From Escherichia coli (GTDB lineage: Bacteria > Pseudomonadota > Gammaproteobacteria > Enterobacterales > Enterobacteriaceae), in assembly GCF_030384885.1 (NCBI RefSeq), contig NZ_CP128613.1: a stretch of 64,000 nucleotides of DNA; one strand, written 5' to 3'. Made by a program: the position numbers. Of this stretch, positions 32,901 through 35,900 are shown piece by piece; within the stretch, counting starts at the first letter, position 1, and each line of letters begins with the position of its first letter.

Positions 32901-35900
32901 AAGAGAACCAGGCCTGAGCATTGGCGATGCCGCCAGTAACCCGACGCCCGGTAGCACGATATTTGGCGATGAAATGTAACGACGTAGAGCCTGAGTAAAG
33001 TCGTTTCCAGTTTGCTGGAGGACGATTAATCGGTACAAGGTTTCCTTCATCATCAAACAACGCTACGCCAATATTGGTGGCAATCCCTGGCCCCTCTCCC
33101 ACGGAAAGCACATCCGGATTTTTACCATCCGCGACACCGTGAAACGCCACACCCACACGTTCACTCACCACCGTGCTACATTCCCGTAAATGAATAACAA
33201 AAGGCACCGGTGCGCTATCTTCCCCAACCGCATGAAACCGGTTACTGCTGATTTGCCCCATATTGACCGTCATTTGTTTATCACCAGCTTCAATCCGGCA
33301 AGCTTCTGCAATAATGACGCCCTGAAATTGCATATTTCCGCCGGGCAACGTGGTGTTCCATTTATTTCCGGCCAGAGCAAACATTGGCAGCAACGACGCT
33401 AATAGAAATAATCTCTTCCTTTTCATCGTTATTTTTATCGCACAAGGGTGGGCATCCCTGCCCGTAATGACGTCCCTGAACCTGGGTAGGTTATTGATAC
33501 TGAACCTTGAAGGTCGCATCCGCATTAGCAGCACCTGGGGTTGCGGCACCGGTTGCAAAGTAACGCGCCTGGAACGGAATGGTGTTAGTACCGTTATTCA
33601 GGGTTGTTTCTGCACTAAATGTCGCACCGTCCAGCGCCAGCGCAGCACCGGTTCTGTCCAGAATTTGCACACCAACATTTGTTGCGCTACCTGCAGCAGA
33701 ACTCTGCAGAGCTAGTACATCAGTATGCGTAGCATCAATTGCCGTACCTAAGAAGGCAACAGCGGCTTTTGTAGCAACAGTGGTATCGCAATCATTCAGC
33801 TGAATGTTAAAACCAACGGCAGAGCTGGTTGCTCCAGCCTGCTTCAGGCTAGCGGTACGAACCTGGCCCAACTGAACGGTTTGATCAACAGAGCCTGCAT
33901 CAACTGCGCAAGCGGCGTTAACAACTTCCCCTTTGAAGTGAACGGTCCCACCATTTACCGTCGTAGTATCGGCCAGAGCCGCTGCGGAACTGAGGGACAG
34001 AGCCGACAGAACAACGATTGCCAGAGTTTTAATTTTCATGCTGCTTTCCTTTAAAAAAACTGTTTCTAAATCGACATGGGCAGTCGTTCTGTACACTTTG
34101 TTTTGAAACGAATTGGACTGCCAACACTGCACAGTTCTTCCCCAAAAGATGAAACATTTGGGGCCATTTTGACTCATAGAGGAAAGCATTACGCACGAAC
34201 TTTCTTAGTTTATTATTTGGATTTATATTCTATTAATACATTATTTTATAGATTTTTATATTGAACGCAGTGGTTTTTGGAGAGATGAATGAGGAAGTTG
34301 CTTCGAGACACAAAAACGTTAGCTTTACCTATAGCGGAGGTTATGTGAAATTAATTTATAAGAGAAACAATTTACATATCAAACAGTTAGTTGCTTTATG
34401 TCGTTTTTTTATATTTTTATGCTTGAGAACAAATACAAAACTTTTTTATGATATGGACAGTTTGGCCCCAATTGTATTATATTCCTTTATCTTTTTATAT
34501 TATTATCAATAAGTTACATCAGGCATCTTCTCTTTTTAATTTTTCGTTTATGAGATTATTTCTTTCCCATAATCCGGCAAAACGTGCAGCATTACTGGCG
34601 GTATAACGCACAGTATGGCGAATATTTCGATGCCCGAGGTAATCCTGAATTAAACGGGTATCTGCACCACGCTCCGCCAGTTCATAACCGCAAGCATGCC
34701 TTAACATATGAGGATGAGTCTGCGTCACGGTTCCAGCTTCAATACCGGCATCGCGAATAATGCGATAGGCCTGCTGGCGAGAAAGTCGACTCCCGCGGCG
34801 AGAAATAAATATGGCGTCGGTCTGGTCAGCGCCTTTCCAGTTAATACGTTCCTGGGTCCAGCGCTCCACAGCTTCACGCTCATCAAAACGTAACGGGTGA
34901 ACGGTAGAAAATCCGTTCTTCAGTCGGCGAATATTTATTCGACCTTCGTTAAGGTCAAGATCCTGATAATGCAGATCAAGCAGTTCACTAATACGCATCC
35001 CATGCCGATATGCCAACAAAATTAGGCAATAATCTCTGGCTCCCGTTGCCCCGTAACAAACCGCCTGCATCATGTCCTGAACTTCTTTACCGGTAAGATA
35101 ACGACGTTTACTCACAATAGTAGTACTCCTGACTGAGATATATTTGAATGAATACCTATAGGAAACCTCGATCGGTTAAAATTAGCCCAATAGATAAAAA
35201 GATAACCACACAGGAAGTTATGTGGCTATCAGTCAATTACATTAAATATCATACAAAAATAAAATATCACTGATGTGACAACATCTATTTTCATTGATTT
35301 GATTCAATATAACAATAGATTGCAGCGGATTAACTTCCAGTTGCTTAAAAAATAAAGAAAAAAGTGCAGAAACAGGAGAACTTGAGTGATGTGTAAATTT
35401 ATGAATGATTTTGTTTATTTATTTTGAAGAACATAAACCATTGTATTTTGTATGGATATGGTTAACTTAATGTTTATTATGATAATTAAGAATCACACTT
35501 ACAATAACATCAATTAATAAATAGTTAATCATTTTTGATATATCGTAAGAATAATGTATTTTTTAACACCATCCCTGGTATCTCATCTATCTCTATAAAA
35601 CAGCGTGATGCTGTCGTCCTCTGGCTCTATCCCAGATGCCGTAAAAACGCCCTGCATTGCTGGCGGTATACCAGACAGTATGACGAATATTGCGATGCCC
35701 AAGATAATCCTGGATAAGTCGTGTATCTATTCCCATATTCGCCAAAGCAAAACCACACGAATGGCGTAACATATGCGGATGAATCTCCAGTGATAACCCA
35801 GCATTACCACCAGAAGTCGAGATAATATGGTAAAACTGTTGCCGAGAAAGCGGGTTCCCCTTACGTGATAAAAATACCCACTCGCTCTCAGCATGCGGAT

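Follow-up and report, generated by a model that had tools for sequence, protein, structure and literature searches.

The fim locus in this stretch of an Escherichia coli chromosome (the whole 64 kb that was analysed, hereafter the window) raises the question of which phase of type 1 fimbriation the assembly records, and of how much that orientation says about the strain. The fimA promoter is carried within an invertible element, fimS; it faces fimA in the ON orientation and is disconnected from it in the OFF orientation (PMC2647292). We find that the locus is almost certainly the E. coli type 1 fimbrial switch, invertible by FimB and FimE and deposited in the OFF orientation. Nothing in our analysis contradicts the OFF call.

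Structure of the switch and of its surroundings

The positions of the switch, its internal landmarks and the neighboring genes are given in Table 1. The element measures exactly 314 bp (34471-34158+1) and is bounded by a perfect pair of 9-bp inverted repeats, which confirms the claim made from the sequence alone that an intact element with both repeats lies at 34158-34471. When both strands of the 64-kb window were searched, the 9-mer TTGGGGCCA occurred at two sites, IRR and IRL only. A lone pair of 9-mers is not rare by chance, with at least 2 matches found in 13 of 100 shuffled sequences. The repeats are nevertheless considered real because they are inverted, lie 314 bp apart between fimE and fimA, and have the same sequence as the published fimS repeat, 5'-TTGGGGCCA (PMC8777976). 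In the inverted form of the element, the IRR-side flank is joined to ...AAACTGTCCATATCAT and the IRL-side flank to ...TTTTGACTCATAG.

All genes of the cluster are encoded on the - strand in the order fimB, fimE, switch, fimA, fimI, fimC, fimD, fimF, fimG, fimH. The region is collinear with K-12 over 13.7 kb with 96.4% identity, and the genes from fimI to fimH share 96.6-98.6% nucleotide identity with their K-12 counterparts. Strain 2013C-4282, the genome of which is nearly identical, carries annotations for FimB, FimE and fimA, and for fimI-fimH at the same coordinates. The spacer between fimE and IRL is 47 nt long. On the other side of the switch, the fixed leader (34041-34157) is left without an attached fimA-directed promoter in the present orientation.

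Putative IHF sites were searched with the consensus WATCAANNNNTTR by sequence-level matching only, and two matches, at 34504 and 34377, were found. Both are conserved in 9 of the 9 aligned genomes and across the two allele classes of the region that are described below. The published IHF-1 site adjoins IRL and the IHF-2 site is located within fimS (PMC9993118). The match at 34504 therefore probably corresponds to the footprinted IHF-1 site, and that at 34377 to IHF-2.

Table 1. Features of the fim switch and of the fim genes in the window
Feature	Position	Strand	Description
fimS invertible element	34158-34471		314 bp, phase-OFF orientation, between fimE and fimA
IRR, fimA-side inverted repeat	34158-34166		TTGGGGCCA on the + strand
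IRL, fimE-side inverted repeat	34463-34471		TGGCCCCAA on the + strand, reverse complement of TTGGGGCCA
HinfI site GACTC	34171-34175		Single site near the fimA-side repeat, asymmetric; diagnostic for the HinfI orientation assay
Putative fimA promoter hexamers	34423-34452	+	TTGAGA (34423-34428) and TATGAT (34447-34452), 18-nt spacer
IHF-consensus match	34504-34516	+	TATCAATAAGTTA, in the spacer between fimE and IRL
IHF-consensus match	34377-34389	+	TATCAAACAGTTA, within fimS, candidate IHF-2 site
fimB, tyrosine recombinase	35593-36195	-	Intact 200-aa ORF; 97.7% nucleotide identity to K-12
fimE, tyrosine recombinase	34519-35115	-	Intact 198-aa ORF; 96.1% nucleotide identity to K-12
fimA, major type 1 fimbrial subunit	33491-34040	-	182 codons, ATG at 34040
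fimI, fimC, fimD, fimF, fimG, fimH	27444-33426	-	ORFs open in all six; fimG start unchecked
Fixed leader, IRR to fimA start codon	34041-34157	-	117 nt; 94% identical to K-12

Orientation of the switch

The orientation of fimS was assigned with PCR and restriction assays published by three laboratories, run in silico. In the HinfI assay, the amplified switch region is cut into fragments of 128 and 522 bp in the ON orientation and of 411 and 239 bp in the OFF orientation (PMC6727828). Primers CMD1258 and CMD1259 of this assay were placed on the window with one mismatch each. From the window as deposited, a 649-bp amplicon was obtained that is cut into 411 and 238 bp, which is the OFF pattern, and inverting positions 34158-34471 changed the fragments to 128 and 521 bp, the ON pattern. 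The same assay applied to the K-12 strain MG1655 gave 412 and 239 bp with the sequence as deposited, and 129 and 522 bp after inversion.

Two further assays distinguish the phases by digestion with SnaBI (ON, 403 and 198 bp; OFF, 440 and 161 bp; PMC11724981) or, with primers OL4 and OL20, by digestion with BstUI (ON, 433 and 293 bp; OFF, 539 and 187 bp; PMC9993118). SnaBI and BstUI sites are absent from the allele of the window in either orientation, so both assays were run on MG1655 and their outcome was transferred through the collinear alignment. MG1655 as deposited produced the OFF pattern with SnaBI (162 and 440 bp) and with BstUI (540 and 188 bp), and in the latter assay inversion yielded fragments of 294 and 434 bp. 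The fimS elements of the window and MG1655 align over 314 of 314 positions, gapless and facing the same way with respect to fimE and fimA. Strain SI-NP020 has the opposite arrangement: the TTGAGA...TATGAT pair adjoins the fimA-side repeat and reads into fimA. The phase-OFF assignment of the sequence-only reading is thus supported both directly, by the HinfI assay on the window, and through collinearity with MG1655, which is OFF in the SnaBI, BstUI and HinfI assays. The published definition of the two phases by the direction of the fimA promoter (PMC2647292) is in accord with these assays. Comparison with references of known phase, which that reading had suggested, revealed no phase-ON reference in the orientation of the window.

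Promoter and terminator signals

The TTGAGA/TATGAT pair matches the promoter consensus in 10 of 12 positions. It is located at a distance of 11 nt from the fimE-side repeat, and is directed to fimE, away from fimA. Both hexamers are unchanged in K-12 and in all 9 aligned genomes. From its consensus match and conservation, we take the pair at 34423-34452 to be, probably, the mapped fimA promoter; a literature search for a statement of the mapped hexamers TTGAGA/TATGAT returned unrelated matches only. This pair had earlier been described as the only good sigma70-like promoter within the element. Its position, its location on the + strand and its direction to fimE hold, but "only" was slightly too strong because an equal 10/12 match is present at 34454-34483 (+), which spans the fimE-side repeat and likewise points at fimE. 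A weaker 9/12 match (TTGATA, 18 nt, TAAATT) is located inside the switch on the - strand, at 34382-34353, and faces fimA. Altogether, the consensus scan found 4 promoter-like sites in 33900-34700 versus 2.1 +/- 1.3 expected by chance. With matches this near to chance and rival sites present, the consensus alone cannot fix the orientation, and the published assays are needed.

If the true fimA promoter were another site, for instance the fimA-facing match on the - strand at 34382-34353, the element would actually be in the ON orientation. We give this reading almost no credence, because promoter-like matches in this AT-rich region occur near the level of chance and because OFF is the assignment given by three published restriction assays that had been calibrated with fimbriate as well as non-fimbriate populations. 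An ON orientation by way of this weak match was accordingly ruled out by the in silico assays, and the OFF assignment is retained.

The composition of the element was also considered in the sense direction of fimE. In the present orientation, the middle part of the fimE-sense strand through the switch is C-rich and G-poor (24 C versus 11 G in 80 nt), and the same stretch would be G-rich were fimS inverted. A Rho-dependent terminator acts on the fimE mRNA in the OFF orientation only (PMC2647292), and the base composition of the strand fits such an OFF-only terminator. The terminator scan of 33900-34700 returned no intrinsic terminator, as it should if termination is Rho-dependent, and the Rfam scan of 33000-37500 gave no matches.

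Frequency of the OFF orientation among complete genomes

A set of 5,426 complete E. coli genomes was searched with an 801-bp query spanning the switch in the orientation of the window, and a match was considered collinear when it covered at least 80% of the query. The region was present in 4,723 genomes. The OFF arrangement, collinear with the window, was found in 4,456 of these (~94%), and the ON arrangement, detected with the query in which 34158-34471 was inverted, in 246 (~5%); the remaining 21 genomes fit neither query. A share of ~94% OFF agrees with expectation, since populations that have both recombinases are strongly biased to OFF by FimE (PMC9993118). OFF is thus the usual state of deposited assemblies, and nothing special has been "captured" here. 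The observation holds but is unremarkable: the element is known and is recorded in its default state, as it also is in the K-12 reference.

What the assembly reports is only the orientation that prevailed in the culture that was sequenced, and a mixture in the population is invisible in one consensus. The culture may have contained both orientations, of which the assembler picked one, so that "non-fimbriate phase" would describe the consensus and not every cell; we consider the chances of this to be even. Inversion of fimS is measurable in cultures, for which the assays report mixed percentages (PMC11724981, PMC9993118), and the deposited genomes show both states, 4,456 OFF and 246 ON, as if the majority state were being sampled. 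The strong bias to OFF that FimE imposes when both recombinases are present (PMC9993118) argues in the other direction. In either case a mixed culture qualifies rather than replaces the main explanation, since the consensus is still OFF. The orientation in a single assembly should not be annotated as a property of the strain.

A minority fimS allele

Although its architecture is that of K-12, the sequence of the switch is not. The fimS element of the window is 87.9% identical to that of K-12, with 38 substitutions and 0 indels in 314 bp. Identity to K-12 is 79% in the spacer from fimE to IRL and 90.7% in fimA, and reaches 96-99% in the remaining fim cluster. The first 27 and the last 32 bp of fimS are identical to K-12, and the substitutions cluster in the half that adjoins the fimA-side repeat in the OFF orientation. 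Lrp and Fis sites have been placed at that same end of fimS in OFF (PMC9993118). When nine genomes were aligned, the intergenic region between fimE and fimA split into two clearly separate classes. The class of the window is the minority one: about 51 of the 4,723 genomes (~1%) reach at least 95% identity with the window across the 801-bp query.

The window is nearly base-for-base the chromosome of strain 2013C-4282, which was isolated from human stool in the USA. The two differ by five SNPs in the range compared (window positions 1575-44999). One of these, at 34476, is located 5 bp outside IRL and is private to the window, which has an A where 2013C-4282 and all the others among the nine aligned genomes have a C; another, at 36890, lies in the intergenic region between nanC and fimB. 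As candidates for meaningful regulatory changes, the SNPs at 34476 and 36890 were rejected as too weak, considering that there are five SNPs in 45 kb and that intergenic DNA changes faster.

The ON orientation was found in 0 of the ~50 genomes that carry the allele class of the window, the best match to the ON query being 92.8% identical. From the 5% of ON genomes overall, ~2.7 would be expected among 51, and the probability of finding zero is ~0.07, which is not significant. It is conceivable, though improbable, that the rare allele and the SNP at 34476 alter the switching bias, for example by holding the switch more strongly in OFF. An altered bias would fit the absence of ON among the ~50 genomes with this allele.

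A stronger version of this idea is that the switch is permanently locked in OFF by sequence changes that block inversion by FimB and FimE. A 16-bp deletion type of the fim switch is known for O157:H7. The element of the window keeps all 314 bp and both perfect repeats, fimB and fimE are intact, and the 16-bp deletion of strain 122 is absent; a deletion-type locked switch was discarded on these grounds. Locking by other changes could be suspected from the unusual allele, with its 38 substitutions in 314 bp and a fimE-to-IRL spacer only 79% identical to K-12, from the private A-for-C change 5 bp outside IRL, where the recombinase half-sites flank the repeats (PMC9096935), and from the lack of ON among the ~50 genomes of the class. 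However, no base has been lost from the element, the ends of fimS (27 and 32 bp) are those of K-12, the recombinase genes are open and both IHF matches are conserved, and the zero count of ON genomes does not differ significantly from the ~2.7 expected. We therefore regard a locked switch as very improbable, and prefer a reversible one that is found in its usual orientation.

Few phase-variation systems have been studied as thoroughly as the fim switch, and assemblies record it as OFF by default, so that the orientation found here matters little in itself. The allele has a practical consequence: in this class, neither SnaBI nor BstUI could be used to determine the orientation, as their sites are missing, while the HinfI assay remains usable. 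That two separate fimS allele classes share strictly conserved ends, promoter hexamers and IHF matches also constitutes a small natural experiment on constraint in the element.

Proposed operation of the switch

FimB inverts the switch in both directions, and FimE is biased toward the ON-to-OFF inversion. By analogy with established fim biology, from which both the inversion in this strain and the action of the terminator are drawn, the two recombinases would invert the 314-bp segment by recombination at the 9-bp repeats, aided by IHF and Lrp. With the element in its present orientation, the fimA promoter would sit beside the fimE-side repeat and fire toward fimE. The fimAICDFGH operon would thus be promoterless, and cells with this arrangement are predicted to be non-fimbriate. 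According to the literature, the OFF orientation also puts the Rho-dependent terminator behind fimE, by which the fimE mRNA would be shortened and destabilised. The resulting lower level of FimE would leave FimB still able to return the switch to ON, likewise as described in the literature.

The intact repeats, the length of the element, fimB, fimE, the IHF matches and the open structural ORFs together point to a live, reversible switch. Judged from these sequence features, the switch is probably functional and was caught in its majority phase rather than locked.

Comparison with known switches

The fimS of strain 2013C-4282 (NZ_CP027579.1) is identical to that of the window and also OFF; nearby, the base at 34476, outside the element, differs. 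The fimS of N96 is 98.4% identical to that of the window, and N96 and 24A16CRGN010 belong, among others, to the same minority class and are oriented OFF. K-12 MG1655 fimS (NC_000913.3) has the same repeats, length of 314 bp, flanking genes, promoter hexamers, IHF matches and OFF orientation. It differs from the window by the 38 substitutions and by the SnaBI and BstUI sites, on which the K-12 and UPEC assays depend and which are missing from the window.

The locked-OFF switches, such as the 16-bp deletion type in strain 122 and the switch of the EPEC strain E2348/69, occupy the same locus and are also in the OFF orientation (PMC9096935). In contrast to them, the window has a full-length element, perfect repeats and intact recombinase genes, with no sequence sign of locking. 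The hyxR/FimX switch of UPEC and the Klebsiella fimS are different loci with different sequences. They are likened to the fim switch of the window by published description only, as systems in which a promoter lies between short inverted repeats and is flipped by a tyrosine recombinase (PMC8777976).

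Divergence of the fimS allele

Judged by its sequence, the fimS allele carried here, together with the spacer between fimE and the fimE-side inverted repeat (IRL; window 34158-34518 for both), is a member of a rare class. When an 801-bp query spanning the switch was searched against complete E. coli genomes, about 51 of the 4723 genomes holding the region were at least 95% identical to the window. Compared with K-12, the fimS allele shows 87.9% identity without indels and the spacer 79% identity, which makes both more divergent than fimA (90.7% identity), while the remaining fim cluster is at 96-99%. 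The substitutions in fimS are concentrated in the half adjoining the fimA-side repeat, and the switch ends, the promoter hexamers and the IHF-consensus matches are strictly conserved.

Within the switch (window 34158-34471), neither a SnaBI site (TACGTA) nor a BstUI site (CGCG) was found. The two commonest restriction assays for fimS orientation would therefore be uninformative for this allele. The HinfI site at 34171 is kept, and the HinfI assay works on this allele in silico.

Differences from the near-identical genome 2013C-4282

At window position 34476, 5 bp outside the fimE-side repeat, an A is present here, whereas 2013C-4282 (NZ_CP027579.1) and all 8 other aligned genomes carry a C. 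Recombinase half-sites have been described flanking the repeats, in the region of this position (PMC9096935). At position 36890, which is intergenic between nanC and fimB and lies on the upstream side of the latter, a C is found here versus a T in 2013C-4282. The fim regulatory non-coding DNA holds 2 of the 5 SNPs found between the 2 genomes over 45 kb, numbers that are too small to interpret.

In the fim cluster, the FimR2 small RNA sequence was located between fimA and fimI, and the fimG ORF, read from its first ATG in the window, is longer than the 'fimbrial protein' that RefSeq annotates in 2013C-4282, which corresponds to 28366-28809, so that the start sites disagree (see table). Elsewhere in the window, the inverse-autotransporter gene iatD (about 11872-15538) lacks about 1574 bp relative to 2013C-4282, with the junction near 12019-12036, and its ORF encodes 1210 aa (11906-15538) versus the 1746 aa annotated in 2013C-4282. 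Three does not divide this length evenly, so the reading frame of the original start may have been lost. The segment 45000-64000, beside yjhR, looks like an integrated island.

Coordinates of fim cluster features in the window
Feature	Position	Strand	Basis
FimR2 small RNA sequence, 35 nt	33446-33480	-	MG1655 annotation, 100% identity
fimG ORF, 169 aa from first ATG	28366-28875	-	window ORF
Promoter-like match TGGACA, 18 nt, TATATT	34454-34483	+	10/12 consensus

Comparison with other fimS switches

The promoter-like match listed in the table straddles the fimE-side repeat and faces fimE. Since its -35 hexamer lies inside the switch and its -10 hexamer outside, the match is present only in this orientation. 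In K-12 the counterpart has a weaker -10-like hexamer (TGTATT). The match is probably a chance occurrence in AT-rich DNA.

Strain 122 (NZ_CP028654.1) has a 16-bp deletion within fimS (columns 114-129 of the alignment that includes this strain), the type described for O157:H7 locked-OFF switches. This deleted fimS provides a contrast case to the switch in the window, which is intact.
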